A stretch of DNA of 64,000 nucleotides, taken from contig OY776215.1 in assembly GCA_963675495.1 (NCBI GenBank), positions 1,728,001 through 1,792,000 on the forward strand. The letters run 5' to 3'. A program made the position numbers and the translations under genes. Positions 3,269 through 52,533 of the stretch are shown here, in pieces. The stretch comes from an uncultured Methanolobus sp. (GTDB taxonomy: Archaea; Halobacteriota; Methanosarcinia; Methanosarcinales; Methanosarcinaceae). Position 1 is the first letter of the stretch, and each line of letters opens with the position of its first letter. Under the pieces are notes generated by a model. It searched no databases, had not been told where the DNA came from, and saw only the letters and a list, made by a program, of their open reading frames with translations.

Positions 3269-4645
3269 TTAGAATACAAGTCCAAGCTCTTCGAGCTTTT
3301 TACGTGCGCCATCGTAGACCTTCACATACTCATCGGTTGGTGTTACGGTAGCAACATCGTAACATTCCTGGAATGTCTTACCAGCTGGTGCATTTGCATA
3401 ATCGTTCTCGTAGAGCTTCACAAGGTTGTCAAGTATCTTGTTGACCTCTCCAATGTCCATACCGGCAGTTGCCCTTGCAGCTTCTCCCATCATCCTTGCT
3501 TCCATACCTGTGGTCTTGTCCTGGACAACACCCTTTGCAGATGCAACACCGGAGAGGATCTCACGGCCGGATGCTGTGTCAGTTATGGACTGTGCGGATG
3601 CTTCAAGCAGGCACATCTCGGTACATGGACCTGCACATGGATAGTACTGGTTACCTGAGAGCATGTCAGTGAATTCTGAGATTGTTGCACATGCCCATCC
3701 AGCGATCTGAAGGGTTTCACGGGTGTTTGTGGATCCCCAGCGGATGTGGACCGGACCATCAAGATGCCAGCTTGCATTGCTCATTACAAATGCATTGATG
3801 TGGGTTGCGACATCAACAATTGTGGTTTCTTCTATGCCACCGGCATATCCACCAAAGATAGGCATCTGTTCGTCCATGATGATGTCACTGTTAGCATTGT
3901 AGTGTGCAATAACACTGATAGCATCAAGGTCGATCTTAAGCTCATTGAGCTGTGATACTTCGTGACTGTCGCTGCAGGCCTGGCCACCGGCACAGTCTGA
4001 AGCGATATTTCCCTGAGCGGACAGGGAAGTCTCTGGTCCCTATATGCCCATGCCTGGCCTTCCGGCCATTGCACATGCTTGTTTGATCAGCCTTGTCTCG
4101 GTCTTGGCAGCCAGAATCTCATAAGGGCTCTTTGGAATTGTTGGCTTTCCACGAACAGACATAATGACACCGTCAACAATAGTGTCGACTTCTTTCTCAA
4201 GAGCGTAACTCATGTGGACAGGCATGAATACGTTTTCAGAAATTGGGGAACCTGTTGGACCACCCTGTATTATTGGTTTTCTTTTGTCACCAACACTTCT
4301 CTTCTGAACCCTTACAGCATCTCTGCCGGTTCCGAGTGTGAACTCTTTCTGGACATTGTTGATAGCGTCCCATATCTCGTCTTCAGTATATTTTACTACA
4401 CGGCTTGTATCGGTACAGAATATACCACAGTCAAGAAGCATTTCAAAACCTGCTTTGAACAGGTTTTCCATCATGTCCTTGTCGGTTGGAACGAATTCGT
4501 TCTTGAAATCAAGTTTATATTTTTGCTTGAGCTCCATTGCCTTCATAGGAATGGTCATAAGGTCCCAGTCGTCCTGGGTCATCTTTGTACCTTTCTTTGC
4601 ACGCTCGTAGAATTCATAACAATCTAATGATCTTGAAAATGTCAT
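3269..4645 (-). CDS. mtmB: Monomethylamine:corrinoid methyltransferase MtmB (458 aa, pyrrolysine at codon 202)
   Basis: The ORF-track pieces 4040..4645 and 3269..3877 are in one frame, joined through TAG at 4040-4042 (AGRPGMGI-O-GPETSLS); pyl genes are present in the window. Confidence 0.97.
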
Positions 4646-4658
4646 AATATATACCTCC

Positions 4659-5309
4659 TTATCCCATAAGTTCTAATGCTACACGAGCTGCATCTGCTGC
4701 ATTCTCTGCTGTTGCATCTGCGCCGATCTCTGCGATCCAGCCATCTGATACTGGTGCACCACCGAACATTATCTTTACAGAATCCCTGAGGTTTTCTTCT
4801 ACAAGAGCTTCAACGGTGTCTTTCTGACCCAGCATAGATGTGGTCATGAGCGCAGAACCTACAAGGAGTACTTTACTACCAGCAAGCTTTTTGATCTCAT
4901 CCATAATGTCATCATTTGGTACGTCCACACCAAGATCAACTATCTTGAAGCCATTTGCACCAAGCATTGTTGTTACAAGACGGTGACCAATATCATGAAT
5001 ATCGCCTTCCTGTACAAAAGTGATGGCTGTTCCTACACCTTCTCCAGACTTTGCATCTGCGAGTAAAGGAGTAAGGATTTCCATTGCAGCGTTCATTGCC
5101 TTTGCAGACATCATGATCTGCGGAAGATAGATCTCGGCTGCTTCAAATTTGTCCCCTATGATCTTCATGCCTACTGAAAGGCCGCCTTCTATTGCTTCAA
5201 CAGGACCGATACCTGCATCCAGAGCTTCCTGTGTAATTGCTGCACAACCATTTATATCCTGATTCACAATTGCATCTCTAAGTTTGTCTAACATTTCCTG
5301 ATTTCCCAT
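4659..5309 (-). CDS. mtmC: Monomethylamine corrinoid protein MtmC
   Basis: B12-binding GDIHDIGH motif; directly upstream of mtmB; AGGTGG RBS before ATG 5309. Confidence 0.95.
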   Translation of the reverse strand: MGNQEMLDKLRDAIVNQDINGCAAITQEALDAGIGPVEAIEGGLSVGMKIIGDKFEAAEIYLPQIMMSAKAMNAAMEILTPLLADAKSGEGVGTAITFVQEGDIHDIGHRLVTTMLGANGFKIVDLGVDVPNDDIMDEIKKLAGSKVLLVGSALMTTSMLGQKDTVEALVEENLRDSVKIMFGGAPVSDGWIAEIGADATAENAADAARVALELMG

Positions 5310-5580
5310 TAAATCCACCTTTTGTATTTTTCATATTTTTTTGAAGTTGTTCTTACAGAATTGCATCTACCAGTACAACTATTCTTGGAAACAACTTCCT
5401 TAAGAGAAGTTATCCAATTGATAACGACTGCACGTAAGAGAATTAACTGACAGAATATAGCATAATTCATCCCGATTTTTCAACATTTACAGTACATAGC
5501 TCATCAATTATTACTTTAAAAAAGGTATGAAGATTTCAGTTTCTGACTGGCTATTAAAGGGGAATCATAATTATCATAGT

Positions 5581-11385: not shown

Positions 11386-12852
<1,467 letters not shown>

Positions 12853-12861
12853 GGTGGTATC

Positions 12862-13953
12862 ATGATAAAAAATATTGATTACCATGGCCTTGACATATTC
12901 GCACAGGATATTATAAGTGGCCTTCAGCTCACAGATGCTAACCTAAGAGAACTGCTCTCCCTTACAGAAAAACAAGATCTCCAAAAGCTGCACTACGTTG
13001 CAAGAAAAGTGAGAGATCATTTCTTTGGGAACAAAGTTTTCCTCTACAGTTTCGTTTACTTCTCAACCCACTGCAAAAATAACTGCACTTTCTGTTACTA
13101 CAACAGGTGCAACGATATACAGCGATACCGCCTTGGTATGGATGAGATACGCAATATTTGCAGGGCAGTGAAAAACGAAAGCATACATATGGTTGACCTG
13201 ACAATGGGAGAGGACCCATATTTTCACAATAATCCTGAAAGATTCGTTGATATTGTCAAAGCAGTCAAAGAAGAAACCGGTCTTCCAGTTATGATCTCAC
13301 CAGGAGTCATGAATGATGAAACACTAAGCAGACTTCATGAGATGGGAGCTGATTTTCTTGCCCTGTATCAGGAAACACATGATGTTGATCTCTTCCATAA
13401 ACTGAGAGTAGGCCAATCATTTGAAGAAAGAATGCATTCAAGGCAATTTGCCAAAAATATCGGCTACTGCGTGGAAGATGGTATACTCACAGGCGTTGGG
13501 AATGATATAGATTCAACCATAAAATCCCTGCGCGGAATGCAGAAGAGCAGACCTGACATGGTACGTGTCATGACCTTTGTTCCACAGGAAGGAACTCCTC
13601 TTGAGGAAATAGATCAGCAGTCCAGTCTCTCTGAACTTAAGATAATATCAATACTAAGGCTGATGTTCCCTGACAGGCTTATACCCGCATCCCTTGACCT
13701 TGAGGGAATAGATGGCATGGTACATCGCCTTAATGCAGGTGCCAATGTGGTCACATCGATAATACCATCCGATTCTCCACTTGAAGGCGTTGTCAATTAT
13801 GACAGAGAACTTGAAGAAAGGGACAGGGATCCAAAAAGTGTTGTCAAACGCCTCAAGTCTATGGGTATGGAACCTGCAAGCCAGGATGAGTTCAACAGAA
13901 TAATAGGAAAATCAATACCAAAGACAGTCGAAGTGCCGGTTGTGGCAGTATGA
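12862..13953 (+). CDS. pylB: 3-methylornithine synthase (radical SAM)
   Basis: CxxxCxxC motif (CKNNCTFC), MVDLTMGEDP; operon position after pylS. Confidence 0.97.
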   Translation: MIKNIDYHGLDIFAQDIISGLQLTDANLRELLSLTEKQDLQKLHYVARKVRDHFFGNKVFLYSFVYFSTHCKNNCTFCYYNRCNDIQRYRLGMDEIRNICRAVKNESIHMVDLTMGEDPYFHNNPERFVDIVKAVKEETGLPVMISPGVMNDETLSRLHEMGADFLALYQETHDVDLFHKLRVGQSFEERMHSRQFAKNIGYCVEDGILTGVGNDIDSTIKSLRGMQKSRPDMVRVMTFVPQEGTPLEEIDQQSSLSELKIISILRLMFPDRLIPASLDLEGIDGMVHRLNAGANVVTSIIPSDSPLEGVVNYDRELEERDRDPKSVVKRLKSMGMEPASQDEFNRIIGKSIPKTVEVPVVAV

Positions 13954-15047
13954 AAAACATATGCATTATCGGAGGCAAACTACAAGGTTTTGAGGTCTCT
14001 TATCTTGCCCATAAGGCAGGCATTAATGTTGTGCTTGTGGACCGCAAGGCAAAACCCCTTATATGCAATGTTGTTGACAGTTTCCAATGCTTTGACATAA
14101 CCGAGGAACCCGAAAAACTGAGAGAAATCTCAGAAAATGTAGATGCCATCATTCCGGTAAATGAGAACCTGATAACCATAGAATTTTTAAGAAGTATAGA
14201 GAATGAACTTGCATGCCCTATACTCTTCGATTTTGATGCCTACTACGTAAGCATGGATAAGAAGCGTTCAAAGGATTATTTCAAGTCAATTGATATACCC
14301 ACACCTGAAGATAAGCCCTCCAAGCCACCATATTTTGTGAAACCACCTTGTGAGAGCAGCAGCATTGGAACCTCCATAATATATGATGACATAGGTCTCG
14401 AAGGCCTTGACCCTTCGATGCTTATCGAGGAATATGTTGAGGGTGATGTTGTTTCCCTTGAAGTCGTAGGGGATGGCAGAAACTACGCAGTTCTAAAGGA
14501 AACGAAGATACATATCGATGATACGTACGACTGCCATATGGTGACTCCCATCGATAACTATCCTGAGTTCAGAAAAATAAGTTATGAACTGGCAAAGAAC
14601 CTCAACCTTCGGGGAATAATGGATGTTGAGGCAATAGATAGTCCTCAGGGACTGAAAGTACTTGAGATAGATGCGAGATTCCCGAGCCAGACACCTACTG
14701 CTGTCTACCATTCTACAGGAATAAATCTGGTAGAAATTCTCATGCAAGCGTTTTCAGAAGGAGTTCAAGAGTTGGAAATAGCTCCTGAAAAGAATTACTG
14801 CATCTATGAGCACCTGCTCCTTGATGGTGGAAACCTGAAACCTGTTGGGGAGCATGTCCTCTCACAGGGCTACGAATACGTACAGTTCCATGCTTCTGAG
14901 GGGCTTGAAATATTCGAGTCAAAGGGAAAGAACAGTGTTTTCACTCTTATAAGCTGGGGAACTGACAGGAAAGAAACTGAAAAAATGAGACAAAGCGGAA
15001 TGGAAATGATAATTGAACATTTCCAGACAAATCCACAGGAGGTATAA
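13950..15047 (+). CDS. pylC: 3-methylornithine--L-lysine ligase (ATP-grasp)
   Basis: GGKLQGFE and LEIDARFPSQTP motifs; operon position. Confidence 0.96.
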   Translation: MKNICIIGGKLQGFEVSYLAHKAGINVVLVDRKAKPLICNVVDSFQCFDITEEPEKLREISENVDAIIPVNENLITIEFLRSIENELACPILFDFDAYYVSMDKKRSKDYFKSIDIPTPEDKPSKPPYFVKPPCESSSIGTSIIYDDIGLEGLDPSMLIEEYVEGDVVSLEVVGDGRNYAVLKETKIHIDDTYDCHMVTPIDNYPEFRKISYELAKNLNLRGIMDVEAIDSPQGLKVLEIDARFPSQTPTAVYHSTGINLVEILMQAFSEGVQELEIAPEKNYCIYEHLLLDGGNLKPVGEHVLSQGYEYVQFHASEGLEIFESKGKNSVFTLISWGTDRKETEKMRQSGMEMIIEHFQTNPQEV

Positions 15048-15048
15048 A

Positions 15049-15834
15049 ATGGCACTTTTGACACCAGAAGACCTGGAAAACCTTTCAATGCAGCTTGAAG
15101 AAAATGATGAGATCGCAAGAAGGGTCACGGGTCTTGATATAAGGGGAATATGCGAATCACTTTACGGAACAAAACCAGGTTCTGAAAAAGTAGGTATCAT
15201 ACCCATCACCGCGGGAAACGGTGTTATCGGTAATTTCACGTCTTCTCTTCTCTATATAGTCGAATACTTCGGCTTTGAAGGATTCATATCAGAGCATCCG
15301 GATGTTACAGGTTACTATGAAGCCGTGTCCCAGGGAGCTGACATAATAATGATGGCAGATGATCATATTTTCACTGCTCACAACCTGAGGAACGAGAAGA
15401 TCGTCGGCAATCATGTGGCTACAGGTGTTATTTATGCGGACATTGCTTCAAGGTTCCAGGAAGCCAGTTCAAAGGATATACTAGTAATTGGACTTGGAAG
15501 AGTTGGTTATGCAGGAGCATGTCATCTTGTAGACAAGGGTTTCAATGTCTATGCCTGCGATCCTAACAAGAAATTCCTTCAAAAAGCTGTTGATGAACTT
15601 GGCATAAAACCTTACTGCAGTGATGACAGGAAGAAATTTTCCATGGTTTTTGAAGCCACACCCAATGCAGACACAATATCAGAAGGCATGATCGAAGAAA
15701 GATGCCTTGTCTCAACCCCTGGGATACCGTGTGGACTTCCGCCTGAAGTCGGAAAGAAATATCGTGTTGACCTTGTGATGGAGCCTCTTGTGATAGGGGT
15801 TGCTTCAATGTTGTATTCTGTAATTCAAAACTAA
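15049..15834 (+). CDS. pylD: Pyrrolysine synthase (dehydrogenase)
   Basis: MALLTPEDL start; MADD; GLGRVG Rossmann motif; PGIP. Confidence 0.96.
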   Translation: MALLTPEDLENLSMQLEENDEIARRVTGLDIRGICESLYGTKPGSEKVGIIPITAGNGVIGNFTSSLLYIVEYFGFEGFISEHPDVTGYYEAVSQGADIIMMADDHIFTAHNLRNEKIVGNHVATGVIYADIASRFQEASSKDILVIGLGRVGYAGACHLVDKGFNVYACDPNKKFLQKAVDELGIKPYCSDDRKKFSMVFEATPNADTISEGMIEERCLVSTPGIPCGLPPEVGKKYRVDLVMEPLVIGVASMLYSVIQN

Positions 15835-15848
15835 AGGAGTAACAAGAA

Positions 15849-17483
15849 ATGTATGTGATTTCACTGGACCTTGGAACTAGCGGTTTCAGGGCACAACTTA
15901 TAGACCTTGAAAAGAAAGAAACTTTAAAGACTGTGATTACAATGGGCCACCCGCTTCCCGGTGGAAATGTCATGGACCACCTTGATTTTGCCATGGCTAC
16001 CGGAGAAGATGTAGCTCACAGGCTGATCATTGAAACTGTAAAGGAGATTCTGGAAAAGTTCGATGTGGAACCTGAAAAGATAGAGCGTATAGCAGTCTGT
16101 GGAAATCCCATACAACTCTCGCTTTTCCAGAATATGGAGATAAGGGACCTTGCATACGCAGGTGAGAACAAACAGAAATCCCTTGGAGTGGAAGATGTCA
16201 AAAGAGATGCCAGGATATTCCCTGCAAATGAGATATTCAAAGGTATCTTTGAAATGGATAACTGTGAGGTAATCGTTCCTCCAGCCATCAAACACGAGAT
16301 CGGTGCCGATGCTCTTGCCATGATGCTGGAAACCGATTTCATCAACCAGACAGAACCGTGTCTTGTTACTGATTACGGCACCAATGCCGAGATGGCACTG
16401 AAGATAGGCGACAGAATAATAACTGCAAGTGCAGCTGCAGGACCTGCTATTGAAGGACAGGGTATAGCATGTGGAATGCTGGCTGGTCCAGGCGCAATAA
16501 GTGATATAACTATTGAGAACGGTCTCTGGAGACTTACTGTTCTTGACAGGACAATGAGCCCCGGTGAAGGACCTCTTGTTGATCCTGTTACAGGGGAGAT
16601 CGCTGAGGAGGGTGGATTGATCCCAAAGGGTATCACTGGAACCGGTGTTATCTCTACAATCGCACTAGCCATCAGGGAAGGACTCATGACGAAGATACCC
16701 GAACTGCCCAATGGAAAACTGATACTCAGTGAAAATATAATGATTAACAACAAGGATGTGGAGGAAGTAGGCAAGGCTATAGGCGCTATACGTGCAGCTC
16801 ATCTAACACTCATGGTTGAATCTGGCGTGAAATACGAGGATCTCACCTACTCATATATGTCAGGGGCAACCGGGACATATGTGAATGCTGAAAAAGCAAG
16901 ATACATAGGATCGGTACCTGGATTTTCCAAAAATATCATTCAGTTTGGGAACACATCCCTGGGGCTTGCAAGGAAGATCGCTATTGACAGGTCAAAACTT
17001 GATGAGGTCATAGAGATCGCAAAGAAGATACAGGCCGACCACCTGATGATGGCCACCAGCGAGACCTTCAAAGACATATATATGTGCGAGCTATCGAAAT
17101 GGCAACAGGGAATGCCTGAAGATGTGTATAAACAGATGCTTGAGATGTACAACATCCCTGTGTTCCCTGAGAACATTAAAGAAGTTGAAATAGAAAAAAG
17201 GGTTGTCAGGGACATTGATGACGTGGGGAAACTTGGCCTTGATATCGTAAAGGACATAGGGATCATTCTTGAAGCACCGGTGGTTGATTGCATACTCTGT
17301 CATAAATGTGAGCAGGAATGCCCTGAAGATGCGATTATAATAATTCAGAAGGATGGAGAAAAAGAAAGATATGCCGATATCGACAGTCAGCACTGTCTTG
17401 GTACAAGCTGCAGGCGTTGTGTTGCCATATGTCCTGTGCAGACCATAGACCACAAGATACTGAAAATAAAGGAAAAGAACTAA
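15849..17483 (+). CDS. ramA: Methylamine methyltransferase corrinoid protein reductive activase
   Basis: ASKHA-type DLGTSGFRAQ and DYGTNAEMAL motifs; C-terminal 2x[4Fe-4S] ferredoxin domain; follows pylD. Confidence 0.92.
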   Translation: MYVISLDLGTSGFRAQLIDLEKKETLKTVITMGHPLPGGNVMDHLDFAMATGEDVAHRLIIETVKEILEKFDVEPEKIERIAVCGNPIQLSLFQNMEIRDLAYAGENKQKSLGVEDVKRDARIFPANEIFKGIFEMDNCEVIVPPAIKHEIGADALAMMLETDFINQTEPCLVTDYGTNAEMALKIGDRIITASAAAGPAIEGQGIACGMLAGPGAISDITIENGLWRLTVLDRTMSPGEGPLVDPVTGEIAEEGGLIPKGITGTGVISTIALAIREGLMTKIPELPNGKLILSENIMINNKDVEEVGKAIGAIRAAHLTLMVESGVKYEDLTYSYMSGATGTYVNAEKARYIGSVPGFSKNIIQFGNTSLGLARKIAIDRSKLDEVIEIAKKIQADHLMMATSETFKDIYMCELSKWQQGMPEDVYKQMLEMYNIPVFPENIKEVEIEKRVVRDIDDVGKLGLDIVKDIGIILEAPVVDCILCHKCEQECPEDAIIIIQKDGEKERYADIDSQHCLGTSCRRCVAICPVQTIDHKILKIKEKN

Positions 17484-42098: not shown

Positions 42099-43256
42099 AT
42101 GAAACTTTCCGGGAGCCTATTGAAGATCATAAGTGAAGACCTGATGCCTGTAACTGAAATTGATATAAGGGCTCTGGCGGAAATCTATGCTGAAAAGGAT
42201 ATTTACCTTTCAGTCTATCTTCCGGTGTCCGGAAGGGAAAACGAACATTTGAATCGCATATTTGTGGATTCAAGAGTGAAGTCGATCAAAAAAGCTTTGT
42301 CTTCTAAGCTCAGGTCTGAATTTGAAAAGACCTTTGATATGGCTGAAAAATCAATATTTGAACCTCCAATTTCCGGTGAGAAAGGCAGGGTTATCTTTGC
42401 CAGTTCATCAGAATCTTTCCTGCACGTTTACAAACTGGCTGTGGAGCCGGAGCAGTCACTGGTTCTTGATACATCACCTTTTTTGCTGCCACTGGCAAAA
42501 CTGAGGGCAGACTATGATGACTATGGCGTACTGCTTGTTGATTCCCAGGAGGCTAAGTTCACATGTGTACGCTCGGATCTCACAGAGGAAAAAAAACACC
42601 TATCTATAGACCTGATGAACAAGCACAAAAAAGGAGGATGGAGTCAGATGCGCTTCAACCACCTGAGAAAAGGGGCGATAAAATCCTTTTTGTCTGAAGT
42701 TGCTGATAACATCAAAGGCACATGTGACCAGCTACAGACAAGAGGTCTGGTAATTGCCGGACCCGGAGAGGCAAAACAACAACTAATGGACTTGCTACCA
42801 CAGGATGTCCGGCAGAGTGTACTGGGTGTTATTGACGTAGCAATGGATATTTCCCTTGATGAACTGGTAGAGGAAAGCTATTCTGTCCTGCACGAAAATG
42901 AACTTTCCATATCAAAGAAAAAAGCGAATGAGTTAAAAAACGCAATCTTAAAGGGTGGACTGGCTGTCCATGGTGTGGAAGATGTCAGAGATGCTCTGGA
43001 GCAGGGAAGAGTAAATGTCCTGCTGATCCTGAAGGGTTCATCAGTTTCCGGGTGGATATGTGAGAGATGCCAGAATCTCCAGGCAAATGTTCAGCCTCCG
43101 AAGGAATGTGACAGGTGCGGGGGTCCAACATCAGTTATTGATGTGGTGGAAGAACTCTATGAACTTGCCCAGCGCACAGGTTCAGAGGTCGAATTCGTGG
43201 AAAAAGAGGATTTTCTGGACTCTGATGATGTGGTGGGTGCGTTACTTAGATACTGA
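42099..43256 (+). CDS. aRF1/Vms1-like release-factor paralog (baeRF family)
   Basis: LSVYLP, KHKKGGWSQMRF, LVIAGPGEAK, Zn-ribbon insertion and VGALLRY end; no GGQ or NIKS. Confidence 0.8.
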   Translation: MKLSGSLLKIISEDLMPVTEIDIRALAEIYAEKDIYLSVYLPVSGRENEHLNRIFVDSRVKSIKKALSSKLRSEFEKTFDMAEKSIFEPPISGEKGRVIFASSSESFLHVYKLAVEPEQSLVLDTSPFLLPLAKLRADYDDYGVLLVDSQEAKFTCVRSDLTEEKKHLSIDLMNKHKKGGWSQMRFNHLRKGAIKSFLSEVADNIKGTCDQLQTRGLVIAGPGEAKQQLMDLLPQDVRQSVLGVIDVAMDISLDELVEESYSVLHENELSISKKKANELKNAILKGGLAVHGVEDVRDALEQGRVNVLLILKGSSVSGWICERCQNLQANVQPPKECDRCGGPTSVIDVVEELYELAQRTGSEVEFVEKEDFLDSDDVVGALLRY

Positions 43257-47380: not shown

Positions 47381-47794
47381 ATGATAGATTACACCATAGA
47401 AGAAAAGCTCCCTTCAGTGGAGGAATATATCCAGCTACGAAAATCAGTTGGTTGGCCCTATCCCAACAAAAAATCAATAGAGAAGAGCCTGAACAATTCC
47501 AACTATTGCGTTTGTGCTGTTGAAAAAGGCAGGGTCATAGGCATGTCCCGTGTGGTAGGAGATGACAGTTTCATCTTTTTCATTGCGGATGTCATCGTTC
47601 TGCCGAAATACCAGAACCAAGGTATTGGTACTGCACTCATGGAAAAGATAATGTCATATCTGAAGGAGAATGTGCAGGAATATTCTTATATTACCCTGAT
47701 GTCAGCAAAAGGAAGAGAGGCCTTTTACGAAAAGTTTGGTTTTTTCAAGAGGCCTGTGGGTGAGTATGGGTGTGGGATGATGGTTGAACTTTAA
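47381..47794 (+). CDS. GNAT family acetyltransferase
   Basis: VLPKYQNQGIG and FYEKFGF motifs. Confidence 0.9.
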   Translation: MIDYTIEEKLPSVEEYIQLRKSVGWPYPNKKSIEKSLNNSNYCVCAVEKGRVIGMSRVVGDDSFIFFIADVIVLPKYQNQGIGTALMEKIMSYLKENVQEYSYITLMSAKGREAFYEKFGFFKRPVGEYGCGMMVEL

Positions 47795-48267
47795 AATGAG
47801 ATTTTTAAGAGATCTTGTAGTGTAAGATCTATCGGGCAAGTATGCTATCTTCTTGCAAACCATTTTTATTCCATTCAATTTAATATAATTCTTTATGGTT
47901 TCTCCTGATCCTATAATTTGAAAAATCACCCGAAAAATATAAATGCTATTTATGAATTCATGATTTTGAACCATGCTCCATTCAAAGCAGTAATAGACCA
48001 AAATCCAAGATTATATGCGTTTTATTAAATACAAAAATAATCAAATGCGTTTTAATTATTTATAAATTCAGCATCATACGGCTTGTTGTGTTTATGCAAA
48101 TACCTTCTGACATAAATTCTTCAACAATATTTAAATATGATAATTCGGAATGTGTTTTACAAAAAATATAAATATGGTTAGTTTGTTTTACCCTCGTGCT
48201 GTACTCCTTAAAAACAGTAATAAAATCAAAATTATCTCGAACTCTCATAAATTAATGAGGTGTAAAA

Positions 48268-48432
48268 ATGGAAATCGAAGATCTTGTTCTATCTACTCTT
48301 GCTATTGGTATTCTGGTAAGTTTTTTCATCTACGCTATGACGAACTCTCTTCACTCTAGTCTACCATTGGTTGAAACTCTGGCAATTGGTGGTCTTTGGG
48401 CCTATCTTTTCAATAATCCGAATATTTTATAG
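48268..48432 (+). CDS. Unannotated 54-aa hydrophobic protein, copy 1
   Basis: MEIEDLVLSTLAIGILVSFFIYAMTNSLHSSLPLVETLAIGGLWAYLFNNPNIL; GAGGTG RBS; paralog at 50673. Confidence 0.8.
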   Translation: MEIEDLVLSTLAIGILVSFFIYAMTNSLHSSLPLVETLAIGGLWAYLFNNPNIL

Positions 48433-48847
48433 AATCTCATATCTTGCTTCAATGTACCTGATGTGAGTATGTGTTATGGAATGCTGGTTGGGATTTGAGA
48501 TAAGTCAGCAAATCTTATTTTTGGATTCATAAAGACAAAGACAATCTTTTTTTTATATAGTTAGTGAGTTTAAATTGGGCATTAGATTTTGATTTGATTA
48601 AATGACTTGTAGCATAGTTTTACGGGAATTTTAAATAATGTAGTTTAAAGTTCAGTGCCATACATTTTATATATTTATTGAATTGCCTTTTTATTTCATG
48701 TTCATTCAAAACATAAAAAAAATCAAATTCAAGGACATATGCCGTTTTGTTACTCCAGGTACGTTCAAATGTCCGTTTAAGATTTCTAAATAAAAATCAA
48801 TAGCAATGAATTTTTTCTGATTGTTTTCTAACAAAAGTTAAACAATC

Positions 48848-48878
48848 TTTATATATAGGAATAAGGAATCTGTTTTCC
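48848..48878 (+). promoter_or_regulatory. TATA box followed by an NrpR-type operator GGAA-N6-TTCC
   Basis: TTTATATA at about 48848; GGAA TCTGTT TTCC at 48865-48878, upstream of the APC permease. Confidence 0.55.
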
Positions 48879-48986
48879 GAAAAATATAAGTAGTATGTAT
48901 TACTTTTTGATTTTACATCATAATTTCTTCAAAACAGAATATGGTTAAAATTGTATGCAACTATCAAAAATATATGGGATGTACGA

Positions 48987-50528
48987 ATGAACGATAAAAC
49001 AGATGGTACACAGGCCGGTATAGACTGGGAGCATGGTGCCCAGTGTAGTAAAGTGATATGTGATCCACAGGAACTTGAAAGGACAATCGACTGGAAACAG
49101 GGACTTGCAATAGCATTGGGTGTTCCTTTATTGATCCTGCCTTCAATAGGATATCTGACGAGTTATGTCTGGTCTTTTGCAATAGTTATTTGGGGAGCTA
49201 CGGTTCTCCTCGGGTTCCTGCAAAACCTGGCATTCGGGGAACTTGCAACAGTATTTCCAAAAGCTTCCGGTTTGCCAGGATATACACAGACCGTATTTGG
49301 GTCGAATAAAGATAAGAACAACAAAGGCAAGTTCAAACTAGGAAAATTCATTGGTGGTTTCAGTGCCTGGAGTTACTGGTTCGGATGGAGTCCTGTCCTT
49401 GCTATCTATGCTATTTTAATATCAAGTTACCTTCAGGGTATGGTTCCGGCACTTGGCGGAATTAATTCAACTCTCCTTGCATTGATAGTTGGAGGAGTGA
49501 TCTTTGGTTCTCTTTCTATAATTAATTCAAAAGGACTTAAGAACGGAGCTGCAGCCGGATTTATCCTGGCTCTTATATCACTGGTTCCTCTTCTGGTCAT
49601 CACTATTGCACCATTCTTTACAGGGGACTTCCATATGACTAACATAACAAGCTCATGGTTCCCTACGGACTGGAGCTGGGATGTGAAGCACATATTGATA
49701 CTTCTTGGTCTCTTAGCAATGGCTGAATGGAGTGCTGCTGCCTGGGAAACTGCTGCTATCTATGGTCCTGAGTACAAGAAGCCAAGTAGCGATGTTCCAA
49801 AAGCCCTACTGGTCTGTGGAGCTATCTGTCTTGTCCTCTATGTATTGGTACAGACATCTGTGATCGGTGCTCTTGGCGTTGATGGAGTTCTGGCAGAACC
49901 TATTTCCCCAATGCTTCCACTTGCCAATATGTCCCTTGGTCCTATCGGTGCTTCAATTTCAATAGTAATGTTGATAGGAGCAATGCTTCTTATCATCCAG
50001 ACTGCTTTCCTCTCATCTGCACGTTCTATATACTCAATGTCAGTTGAAGGCAACCTCCCTTCAGTTTTCAGCAAGTTGAACTCACATGGTCATCCTTCAA
50101 ATGCAATGATAGCCGATGCTCTTTTCAACATGGTCCTAATTCTCCTTGGAACACCCACAGCAATTATTGCTGCCTCTGCAATCGGGTACATATGTGCTAA
50201 TGGTATCAGTCTGTACACTTATGTCAAGGTCAGGAACGATCCTGAGATGTCAAAACTGGAAAGGCCTTTCAAAGCTCCAAAAGGATGGAAGCATGTGGCA
50301 CTGGCAACTACTTTCCTGAACACTCCACTATTTCTGATAGGCATAATCTACCTTAATAGCCTTGAACTTGGCTGGGCTGCAACAGGAGTTGGTTTTGCAA
50401 TGCTCTGTCTCTTCATTCCTCTCTGGATGTATTCCCAGCGGGAGTCCAGGAGCAAGATGCCTGCAGCTCATGTAACACATAAAGAACGTGACCTTTTACA
50501 TGAAACGGAACCTGTGCCTCTGGAATAA
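48987..50528 (+). CDS. APC-family amine/amino-acid permease (dimethylamine permease MtbP-like)
   Basis: Polytopic APC-type protein (ERTIDWKQGLAIALGVP, WETAAIYGPEY, LERPFKAP); substrate not established. Confidence 0.8.
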   Translation: MNDKTDGTQAGIDWEHGAQCSKVICDPQELERTIDWKQGLAIALGVPLLILPSIGYLTSYVWSFAIVIWGATVLLGFLQNLAFGELATVFPKASGLPGYTQTVFGSNKDKNNKGKFKLGKFIGGFSAWSYWFGWSPVLAIYAILISSYLQGMVPALGGINSTLLALIVGGVIFGSLSIINSKGLKNGAAAGFILALISLVPLLVITIAPFFTGDFHMTNITSSWFPTDWSWDVKHILILLGLLAMAEWSAAAWETAAIYGPEYKKPSSDVPKALLVCGAICLVLYVLVQTSVIGALGVDGVLAEPISPMLPLANMSLGPIGASISIVMLIGAMLLIIQTAFLSSARSIYSMSVEGNLPSVFSKLNSHGHPSNAMIADALFNMVLILLGTPTAIIAASAIGYICANGISLYTYVKVRNDPEMSKLERPFKAPKGWKHVALATTFLNTPLFLIGIIYLNSLELGWAATGVGFAMLCLFIPLWMYSQRESRSKMPAAHVTHKERDLLHETEPVPLE

Positions 50529-50672
50529 TAGAATAAGAATACGAGTGCTACACCTGGGTCCTGATCTATGAAAATATCAGGATCCATTTTTAGATTCGGG
50601 TGTATCACTCAAGAACTGAAAAAATAGAAAATTAAAAAACTGGCTTTATTACCTATTTTCACTGGTGTAAAA

Positions 50673-50837
50673 ATGGAAATTGAAAATCTCATTATTGCTA
50701 ATTTTGCTATTGCTATTCTGGCAAGTTTTTTCATCTACTCAGCGACTAATCCTCTCCCGTCAGGAATCACGGTGCTTGAAACTCTGGCAATTGGTGGTTT
50801 ATGGGCCTACCTTTTCAATAATCCAAATATTTTATAG
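50673..50837 (+). CDS. Unannotated 54-aa hydrophobic protein, copy 2
   Basis: MEIENLIIANFAIAILASFFIYSATNPLPSGITVLETLAIGGLWAYLFNNPNIL; same GGTGTAAAAATG start context as copy 1. Confidence 0.8.
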   Translation: MEIENLIIANFAIAILASFFIYSATNPLPSGITVLETLAIGGLWAYLFNNPNIL

Positions 50838-50886
50838 AAAATCAGATTCCAAGACCAAAAATCTCTTTTCTGATTTTCTAATTTTT

Positions 50887-52533
50887 TCAGTTCTCCTTCT
50901 TCAAGTAAGCCAGAGCTTCCTGCGTGCTATCACAGATATGCACATGCTGCTTTTCCATTAGTTCAGTGAGTTCCCTGTCGCTTTTCATCCTTCTCATGAC
51001 TTCGGGCTGTATTGAGGTTAGGTAGACTTTCTGGTGGAGTTTTTTACTTGACTTGATGAAACTCTTAAGTCGCTCGATTCCTGTTGTATCTATGAAGGGA
51101 ACATAACGCATACGCAAGATAATATGCGGTTTGCTGATGGCTATGTGTTCGTTTATTTTGCCCTCGAAAACGTTCATGGCTCCAAAGAAGAAGGGGCCGT
51201 TGATGGTGTAGACCGAGACGTTCTTTTCAAGGTAGGGGTCGGCAAAGATGGTTGCGTTGATGCCTTTTGTCTTGTCGTAGTTTTCCATTGTCTGAACGTC
51301 TATTACATTTGTCAGCCTGATGAAGAGCAGGATAATTGAAAGGAACATACCCATCTGTACGGCGAACACGAGGTCAGTGAGCACTGTGAGCAGGAAAGTG
51401 GCAAGCAGGACAGCAGTGTCCATCTTGCTGATATGCAGTGTGGTTTTGAGTTCTGTTAGATTGATCATCCTCACAGAAACGAGAATGAGCACACCTGCGA
51501 GGTAAGCTTTGGGGATGAAAGCAGCGATCGGACCCAGGAAGAGCAGTATGATGAGCAGTATCAAGGCGTGGAATATACCTGACATCTGTGTCTTTGCACC
51601 TTCCCTGATGTTTACAGCACTTCTTGCAATAGCTGCTGTGCAGGGAATTCCTGAGAAGAATGGTAGAACCATGTTTGCAATTCCATGACCAATAAGCTCC
51701 TTGTTGCTGTTGTGTTTTGTGTTGGTCATACCATCACAGACCACGGCACAGAGTAGTGATTCAATGGTTCCCAGCAGTGCGATTGTAAGGGCGGCTGGCA
51801 AGATTGCCATGAGTAGTCCAAGGTTGAAGTTCAACATCTGTATCTGTGGAAGTCCGGCAGGGATGCTGCCAACGATAGGGATGTTGATATTGTAGTAAAA
51901 GACAAGTATGACCGATAGTATCAGTGCGATAATGGAAGCCGGAAGGCTGTTGATATATTTGATTTTTGCCAGTATTCCCGGCAGATATAACAGAAGCATA
52001 ATGGTGGCAATACATATCGTTATAGCAGTTGTGTCAAGGAGGTTCATATTGGAGACGATGGCATACAGCGTTTCCCATACGTGTTCCTTTGCAGGAATTG
52101 TAATTCCAAGAGCATTTGGTATCTGGCCGATAAGAATGATGGCACCGATACCACTCGTGAATCCTGATATGACGGGTAGGGGGATGTATTTAACGACCTT
52201 ACCAAGTTTCAGGATCCCGAATAGTATCTGAAATGCACCGGCAAGGAAGCCCGCAAGGAATAGTCCTTCAAGCCCGAAGCCGTGCAGTGTTGAAAGAATG
52301 ATGACTGTCATTGCTCCGGTGGGTCCGGAAATAGAGTATTTTGATCCACCGGTTGCTGAGACCAGCATACCTGCAATTATAGCCGTGTACAACCCCATCT
52401 GAGGCTCCACACCAGAAGCGATAGCAAAAGCAATAGCAAGCGGCAATGCCACAATGGCTGTGATGAATCCAGCCTTTAGGTCGCTCGCTAACGATTCTTT
52501 GAAATATTGTGAAACTTTATTTTGTTTTTCCAT
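50887..52533 (-). CDS. SulP/SLC26 anion permease with STAS domain
   Basis: DLKAG...ALPLAIAFAIASG, ISGPTGA and GPFFFG...PFIDTTG motifs. Confidence 0.93.
   Translation of the reverse strand: MEKQNKVSQYFKESLASDLKAGFITAIVALPLAIAFAIASGVEPQMGLYTAIIAGMLVSATGGSKYSISGPTGAMTVIILSTLHGFGLEGLFLAGFLAGAFQILFGILKLGKVVKYIPLPVISGFTSGIGAIILIGQIPNALGITIPAKEHVWETLYAIVSNMNLLDTTAITICIATIMLLLYLPGILAKIKYINSLPASIIALILSVILVFYYNINIPIVGSIPAGLPQIQMLNFNLGLLMAILPAALTIALLGTIESLLCAVVCDGMTNTKHNSNKELIGHGIANMVLPFFSGIPCTAAIARSAVNIREGAKTQMSGIFHALILLIILLFLGPIAAFIPKAYLAGVLILVSVRMINLTELKTTLHISKMDTAVLLATFLLTVLTDLVFAVQMGMFLSIILLFIRLTNVIDVQTMENYDKTKGINATIFADPYLEKNVSVYTINGPFFFGAMNVFEGKINEHIAISKPHIILRMRYVPFIDTTGIERLKSFIKSSKKLHQKVYLTSIQPEVMRRMKSDRELTELMEKQHVHICDSTQEALAYLKKEN

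Follow-up and report, generated by a model that had tools for sequence, protein, structure and literature searches.

Twin 54-residue membrane protein genes beside a dimethylamine-type permease gene of Methanolobus and their possible link to methylamine uptake

In marine and saline sediments, methylotrophic methanogenesis starts with the uptake of methylamines, and to our knowledge nothing was known until recently about how methylamine transporters gain their specificity. A locus of an uncultured Methanolobus sp. (Methanosarcinaceae; GenBank assembly GCA_963675495.1, contig OY776215.1) raises the question of whether very small membrane proteins might take part in this step. Within the 64,000 nucleotides analyzed here (positions 1,728,001 to 1,792,000 of the forward strand, hereafter the window), an APC-superfamily permease gene is bracketed by two open reading frames (ORFs) of 54 codons each. 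We call these ORFs microA and microB, the permease gene between them permA, the protein family that the ORFs represent micro, and the genome that contains the window G000. A first-pass annotation of this DNA had proposed that the two ORFs encode accessory or regulatory subunits of a methylamine or amino acid permease. Are they genes at all and, if so, is their product tied to the permease that they flank? The first part of this question can be answered almost with certainty, whereas the second receives a tentative answer.

MicroA and microB are almost certainly real, selected genes of a new small-protein family. As the first-pass annotation had described, both lie on the strand of the permease gene, and BLASTP aligns their products with 37 of 54 residues identical, 45 of 54 similar and no gaps (E = 2e-26). 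The shared start context that it had reported is likewise evident, in that a direct DNA repeat begins at a common GGTGTAAAAATG ahead of both ORFs and ends 2 bases past the stop codon, beyond which the flanks fail to align. The C-terminal 19 residues of the two proteins are identical, and the 4 nucleotide differences in this part are all synonymous, again as first noted. No further micro copies are found in G000, which is a single contig of 2.87 Mb. For codon analysis, 27 intact Methanolobus copies were extracted from 22 genomes. All of them have exactly 54 codons, an ATG start and the common start context, and the frame and length are held down to about 40% identity; besides these 27, genome G151 has one intact copy and G137 one degenerate copy with an in-frame TAA. 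The Nei-Gojobori dN/dS ratio is 0.37 for microA versus microB (dN 0.183, dS 0.494), and within three subgroups the medians are 0.25 (120 pairs), 0.13 (14 pairs) and 0.16 (9 pairs). A Goldman-Yang codon model fitted in IQ-TREE gives an omega of 0.185 over the 27 copies, and omega = 1 on the same tree is rejected (2dlnL = 277). The ratio near 1 that the first-pass annotation had named as evidence against its proposal is therefore not what we find, and its claim of selection at the protein level stands, with the reservation that the identical C terminus may partly reflect exchange between the copies.

Two other readings of the repeated DNA were weighed against this evidence. The repeats might be recombination sites or regulatory DNA or RNA elements that flank a mobile permease cassette, with the ORFs incidental. 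Such elements would fit the observations that the edges of the segment absent from the corresponding locus of genome G003 match the 3' ends of the two repeats, that the permease cassette occupies different loci in different genomes, and that microB is mosaic in appearance. However, the codon-level selection brings this reading close to refuted, and the preservation of frame and length in all 27 copies argues in the same direction, as do the single copies maintained far from any permease and the lack of any Rfam match at E ≤ 1 in positions 47500–51500; we regard it as very improbable. The other reading concerns the stop codons, both of which are TAG in an archaeon that uses pyrrolysine (Pyl): pylSBCD lies in the window and mtbB/mttB of G000 contain in-frame TAG, and if the stops of microA and microB were also read as Pyl, the true products would be longer. 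Among homologues, however, TAA or TGA is as frequent as TAG, the sequences after the stops of microA and microB are unrelated, and the stop of microB is also where a terminator-like hairpin begins. We therefore disfavor this reading and give it scarcely any weight. The TAG stops were correctly recorded at first reading, but they carry no meaning, because homologous genes end in TAG, TAA or TGA and the sequence downstream of the stop is unconserved.

Members of the family are small acidic proteins of the membrane, 54–61 aa long and devoid of lysine and arginine, and are predicted to fold as a hairpin of two helices. In the AlphaFold2 model (34-row alignment, mean pLDDT 77.8), the helices span residues 3–25 and 31–49; Lys and Arg are missing from both the microA and the microB protein, in which positions 2, 4, (5) and 36 are acidic. 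The sequences match no Pfam family at E ≤ 0.01 and no NCBIfam model at E ≤ 1e-15, the model matches no PDB structure at E ≤ 10 in Foldseek, and the best feature score in the ESM Atlas is 0.84, under the lead level of 0.9. A word-indexed search of 5.8 billion proteins matched 9 clusters, all of about 54 aa and from Methanolobus, and a profile of 31 sequences retrieved 8 proteins at E ≤ 1e-3 from 1.84 billion cluster representatives. The only names that databases give to family members are "hypothetical protein" and "uncharacterized membrane protein", which agrees with the earlier claim that the family is undescribed. No description of it was found in literature on small proteins, methylamine permeases and Mbur_2291–2295, and the accessible text of the Methanosarcina mazei Ribo-seq paper mentions a single small ORF, that of the trimethylamine (TMA) operon.

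To tally the distribution, 151 Methanosarcinaceae genomes were searched with the profile in all six frames; a negative here means not found in the genomes searched rather than proof of absence. Besides G000, micro occurs in 22 of 34 Methanolobus genomes (genus g1), in 13 of 13 genomes of genus g10, in the only genome of g9 and in 5 of 11 genomes of g8; the remaining 12 genera yielded none, including g7, the largest sister genus (0 of 34). Cluster members from g10 are named Methanococcoides by their sources (for example Mbur_2295, "hypothetical protein"). The family is thus confined to a few genera of methylotrophic Methanosarcinaceae, namely Methanolobus, the Methanococcoides-type genus and two further ones.

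By fold family and similarity, the flanked gene permA encodes an MtbP-type permease for which dimethylamine (DMA) transport is predicted. Its product matches PF13520 (AA_permease_2) at 2e-43 and shares 60–65% of its residues with proteins that bear the names "Dimethylamine permease" or "dimethylamine:proton symporter", with about 63% identity to the M. mazei cluster of the former name and to the M. thermophila protein of the latter. This bears out the earlier assignment to methylamine-type APC permeases. PermA thus resembles the MtbP-type permeases of Methanosarcinales in domain and sequence. Its orthologues in genomes G115, G046, G077 and G084 are found in or beside mtbC-mtbB clusters, whereas permA of the window is not. 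It differs in being a second paralogue, 62% identical to permB, which is the last gene of the mtbC-mtbB-permB operon of G000 about 50 kb from permA.

The gene neighborhood of micro across genera speaks for a functional tie to this type of permease. The most widely kept position of the family is just downstream of a cluster of mtbC, mtbB and an MtbP-type APC permease gene. The 13 g10 genomes and the single g9 genome share one gene order on a single strand: mtbC, mtbB (with its in-frame break), the gene for an APC permease (about 500 aa), those for a PAS protein and for a response regulator with only a receiver domain, and then micro, here 58–61 aa long. In the 4 of 4 g8 genomes examined, mtbC, mtbB and the permease gene are followed at about 0.25 kb by micro (59 aa) and then by a U32 peptidase gene; this count omits the fifth g8 match, from a genome of 53% completeness (G099). 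Micro proteins from these three genera are only 24–35% identical to the window copies, and the position just 3' of the DMA cluster and its permease has been kept over that degree of divergence.

Within Methanolobus, micro adjoins permA in 7 genomes (G115, G046, G077, G091, G111, G151 and G000). Three of them (G115, G046 and G077) carry the twin layout of the window inside the DMA cluster itself, in the order MT2-type methyltransferase, micro, permA, micro, mtbC, mtbB, permB. The order in G091 is permA, micro, a 19-aa mtbC remnant and permB, and because of this remnant we conclude that mtbC-mtbB was deleted from a G115-like arrangement; the remnant, 19 codons from the start of mtbC, lies at 3763–3819 of the G091 locus (C16:653-5179). 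In G111 the order is SulP, permA, micro and a DNA-alkylation repair gene, and in G151 (C2:196770-201038) an intact micro gene lies downstream of a permA with an in-frame TGA. The window itself reads GNAT, microA, permA, microB, SulP (convergent) and the DNA-alkylation repair gene.

A functional link of micro to methylamine uptake, of the DMA type, is the best single reading of these data, because of the synteny across genera and the precedent of the small protein MttS; we hold it tentatively, with somewhat less than even confidence. In this reading, micro would assist DMA-type uptake or its control in trans, as a small partner in the membrane that is dispensable and not strictly tied to one permease. 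Its role would be analogous to that of MttS and MttQ with the permease MttP, without homology. If the link is true, it would suggest that these archaea generally tune amine uptake through small accessory proteins. If the link is merely historical, the locus still provides a well-supported new small membrane protein of archaea that is annotated only as hypothetical.

The TMA transporter MttP of M. mazei needs small subunits: it co-purifies with MttS (49 aa) and MttQ (98 aa), both of which influence growth on TMA, the MttP complex enables TMA uptake by Escherichia coli, and deletion of mttS impairs growth on TMA, according to the accessible text of a recent preprint (bioRxiv 10.64898/2025.12.02.691841), which in that text makes no mention of MtbP, MtmP or APC permeases. 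MttS and MttQ resemble micro in their small size, in being found solely in methylotrophic methanogens and in having their genes next to that of a methylamine transporter in methyltransferase clusters; MttS is also membrane-embedded, and the idea of a small protein that tunes amine uptake is the same. In contrast, MttS is described in the same portion of the preprint as one membrane helix plus an outer helix, whereas micro is a predicted two-helix hairpin, and MttP is a DME-family transporter, whereas micro flanks an APC permease. The mttS gene lies in an operon directly after mttP-mttQ, both in the preprint as far as accessible and in G000, which has its own homologues of all three genes; micro, by contrast, is often unlinked and is preceded by a promoter-like motif of its own. 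Binding and phenotype have been demonstrated for MttS, whereas the corresponding role of micro is a proposal. Micro does not belong to the MttS family, because the micro profile gives the 49-aa MttS homologue of G000 a score of 1.0 bit even with all filters off; in BLASTP the best E value between them is 0.4. Bacterial transporter accessory proteins such as KdpF, AcrZ, MgtS and CydX are likewise hydrophobic, shorter than 60 aa and encoded beside their transporter, but they are single-helix proteins that are not known to be related to micro in sequence. A bolder proposal, which we think rather doubtful, is that micro constitutes, in marine and halophilic methylotrophic methanogens, a second class of small transporter subunits that arose independently of MttS, in which a 54–61-aa acidic hairpin docks on APC MtbP-like permeases and tunes their affinity or selectivity for cationic methylamines; where two diverged copies flank one permease, assemblies could then be alternative or mixed, with one copy under a promoter shared with the permease and the other under an independent promoter. 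A complex prediction for permA with micro scored 0.28 (mark 0.32) and weighs neither way.

Many observations in Methanolobus weigh against a tie to the permease. Fifteen or 16 genomes of the genus hold micro away from permA. In five of them (G003, G127, G054, G139 and G135), a single copy lies among GNAT, SulP, DNA-alkylation and aldo-keto reductase genes with no permA, and at the SulP/DNA-alkylation locus of G137 (C29) only the decayed fragment with the TAA remains. A distant subgroup (40–50% identical) sits in a block of RimK-like and tetratricopeptide repeat (TPR) genes with no permease nearby in the 10 genomes examined, being divergent from a RimK-like ATP-grasp gene in 7 genomes and within a few kilobases of a TPR protein (Pfam) of about 880 aa in 9 of 10. 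Conversely, 12 of the 36 Methanolobus genomes carry a permA orthologue (at least 88% identity), and micro lies within 1.5 kb in 7 of these; the other 5 (G070, G033, G019, G084 and G062) have no micro at the locus or elsewhere in the genome, and a convergent gene for a FilR1-like regulator follows permA there. None of 18 loci with only the permB paralogue (61–66% identical) has micro within 1.5 kb. Two genomes, G131 and G109 (both 99% complete), carry micro genes under strong selection, yet an MtbP-type permease was not found in them with the query used at E ≤ 1e-10; in G131, mtbB and mttB were not found either, and mtmB is present. Outside Methanolobus, the 34 g7 genomes lack detectable micro even though proteins named Methanosarcina dimethylamine permeases exist, and two regulator genes intervene between permease and micro in g10 and g9. 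The first-pass annotation had named synteny with mtbP-like permeases as a check and had held that homologues occurring independently of permeases would speak against its proposal. The synteny is kept at mtbC-mtbB-permease clusters in four genera, but within Methanolobus independent occurrence is what we find in many genomes, because of the unlinked copies, the permA genes without micro, and the two genomes without a detected MtbP-type permease.

Since the tie is neither obligate nor exclusive in view of these many unlinked or missing cases, a membrane role that has nothing to do with amine transport is nearly as likely. It could be, for example, in homeostasis of the membrane or envelope of marine or halophilic methylotrophs, and the adjacency to mtb genes would then be inherited gene order. 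We treat this alternative as a serious if not a favored one. It accommodates strong purifying selection at three unrelated Methanolobus loci, the presence of micro in G131 and G109 and its absence from five genomes with permA, and a gene with a promoter-like motif to itself and a terminator-like hairpin on either side. Moreover, no Methanolobus genome holds both the RimK-block type and copies of the microA or microB types (A-type and B-type), which looks like one gene that has moved. Such a role leaves unexplained why the DMA-cluster position is retained at 13 of 13, 1 of 1 and 4 of 4 loci across genera despite the low protein identity, and why B-type copies travel with permA into two different chromosomal sites in Methanolobus; small subunits of a methylamine transporter have, in addition, been demonstrated in the same family of organisms. 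The intervening regulator genes suggest another partner, in that micro could be the membrane partner of the PAS protein and response regulator, serving as anchor or sensor input in a control of mtb genes rather than as a transporter subunit. The invariant permease-PAS-response regulator-micro order on one strand in g10 and g9 would fit, as would G091, where a response regulator gene and a FilR1-like regulator gene adjoin permA-micro-permB. However, micro follows the permease in g8 without intervening PAS or response regulator genes, and the Methanolobus contexts mostly lack such genes, which makes this partnership improbable. The link to DMA-type uptake is thus retained as the leading reading at the tentative level stated above.

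Table 1. Coordinates of features at the microA-permA-microB locus and of related G000 loci. Plain positions are those of the window; positions with the prefix C1 are those of the G000 contig.
Feature	Position	Strand	Description
microA	48268..48432	+	54-aa two-helix membrane protein gene (helices predicted), A-type; orthologue of the lone G003 copy (94% aa identity)
microB	50673..50837	+	54-aa paralogue, B-type, the kind accompanying permA in other Methanolobus; 3' third nearest A-type
184-nt direct repeat, left copy	48259..48442	+	Ribosome-binding-like GGTG, ORF and 2 bases beyond
184-nt direct repeat, right copy	50664-50847	+	80% identical to left copy, 2405 nt apart
permA	48987..50528	+	APC-superfamily permease of MtbP (dimethylamine permease) type, 513 aa from ATG at 48987
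55-nt element, copy 1	48120..48174	+	TATA-like AAAAATATAAATA; 148 nt before microA ATG
55-nt element, copy 2	48838..48892	+	78% identical to copy 1; 149 nt before permA ATG
Terminator-like hairpin and T5 run	50555..50592	+	Hairpin 50555-50586; 11-bp stem, -16.2 kcal/mol, z -2.15, 27 nt past permA stop
Promoter-like motif ahead of B-type copies	50634..50672	+	TATA-like TTTATTA centered about 25 nt before ATG, then GGTGTAAAA
Terminator-like hairpin and T-run	50835..50889	+	Hairpin 50835-50880; 12-bp stem, -13.7 kcal/mol, between microB and convergent SulP
Segment missing from collinear G003 locus	48436..50890	+	Leader, permA, microB; similarity ends after microA stop, resumes in SulP 3' end
mttP, mttQ and mttS homologues	C1:1701120-1702624	-	348 aa, about 100 aa and 49 aa; between mttC and mtbC/mtbB, M. 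mazei order
DMA cluster MT2-mtbC-mtbB-permB	C1:1723273-1728530	-	Just left of window

Signals around the twins (Table 1) bear on how the copies might be expressed. The first-pass annotation had suggested that one copy belongs to the permease transcript. For microB this is unlikely, because a conserved hairpin with a T-run separates it from permA and it has its own promoter-like motif, and microB therefore looks like a unit of its own. The hairpin is found 3' of all 11 intact permA orthologues, whether or not micro follows, with a common core and differing flanking pairs. About 40 nt past it begins the B-type motif, which is conserved between different loci and genomes and may function as a promoter. 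The hairpin after microB folds better than its shuffled versions (none of 200 folds as well). A bacterial-type promoter scan gave 10 promoter-like matches against 10.4 expected, which is chance level, and a bacterial-type terminator scan gave none, since its G+C rule misses these A+T-rich hairpins; they were then folded directly. An imperfect inverted repeat of 28 nt (50612–50639 and 50867–50894, 79% complementary) also brackets microB, its right arm overlapping the terminator-like hairpin between microB and SulP; in such A+T-rich DNA it may be due to chance.

MicroA lies 554 nt upstream of permA and, judged by such sequence signals, also looks like a separate unit. About 170 nt ahead of the ATG of each gene align in register, with the 55-nt element as the core of the similarity. 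This likeness is limited to A-type copies (G000 and G003) versus the permA genes of G000 and G111, which account for 4 significant pairs when 10 regions were compared with 10. If these regions are promoters and leaders, G000 would regulate microA and permA together. A third and weaker copy (72%) of the CCGAAAAATATAA-type element, with no obvious ORF behind it, is present at 47930–47990 between the GNAT gene and microA.

How did the twin layout arise? In a nucleotide tree, the microB copy of G000 falls in a B-type clade (support 97/99) with the flanking copies of G115, G046 and G077 and copies of G091, G111 (C7) and G054, whereas microA groups with the G003 copy and other A-type copies. The divergence of microA from the lone G003 copy amounts to a dS of 0.28. 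On these comparisons, the twins are old paralogues and not the product of a fresh tandem duplication. On the tree, the downstream copy of G115 is paired with that of G046, and the twin layout therefore predates the split of these two genomes; the two copies of G077 pair with each other, which points to conversion or a recent copy. The window and G003 are collinear up to 48435 and again from 50891 onward; the extra 2.4 kb of the window therefore comprises the leader, permA and microB and is bounded by the 3' ends of both micro genes. The comparison shows that this segment was inserted exactly at the 3' end of an old A-type copy that already resided at the GNAT/SulP locus.

The position of the cassette differs between G000 and the three genomes with twins inside the DMA cluster. 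These carry micro-permA-micro exactly in the spacer between the MT2 and mtbC genes, whereas the corresponding spacer of G000 (589 nt) contains no micro, permA or remnant of either; the permA-micro unit has thus moved between sites. MicroB also appears mosaic. Its first two thirds are B-like, with 52/54 and 45/54 matches to the downstream G077 copy versus 43/54 and 35/54 to microA, while its last third is A-like, with 51/54 to G003 and 50/54 to microA versus 43–48/54 to B-type copies at mtb/permA loci. These numbers are small, but they suggest exchange between micro copies. Relocation of the permA-micro unit probably proceeded by recombination through the micro sequences themselves, and the locus would accordingly illustrate that small genes can act as recombination handles for moving a transporter gene. 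A single-crossover (Campbell-type) insertion was considered and rejected, since it predicts a B-like 3' end in microA, the last third of which instead matches G003 at 52/54.

The DMA cluster of G000, taken as the desulfoferrodoxin-like gene, MT2, mtbC, the TAG-containing mtbB and permB, extends over C1:1723273-1729047 on the minus strand, and positions 1–1056 of the window overlap its end. Elsewhere in the window, a gene for a methyltransferase-cognate corrinoid protein lies at 4662–5318 on the minus strand, and a complete pyrrolysine cluster, pylS-pylB-pylC-pylD, followed by the gene for the corrinoid reductive activase RamA, occupies 11452–17480, 31 kb to the left of the twins. The gene at 42099–43253 encodes a protein of 385 aa that matches aRF1 below the cut-off (1.8e-39; 135.7 bits versus a cut-off of 234.7) and, also below cut-off, the Rv2629-type ribosome hibernation factor; its similarity marks this product as a divergent paralogue of the aRF1 type, in an archaeon that decodes Pyl.

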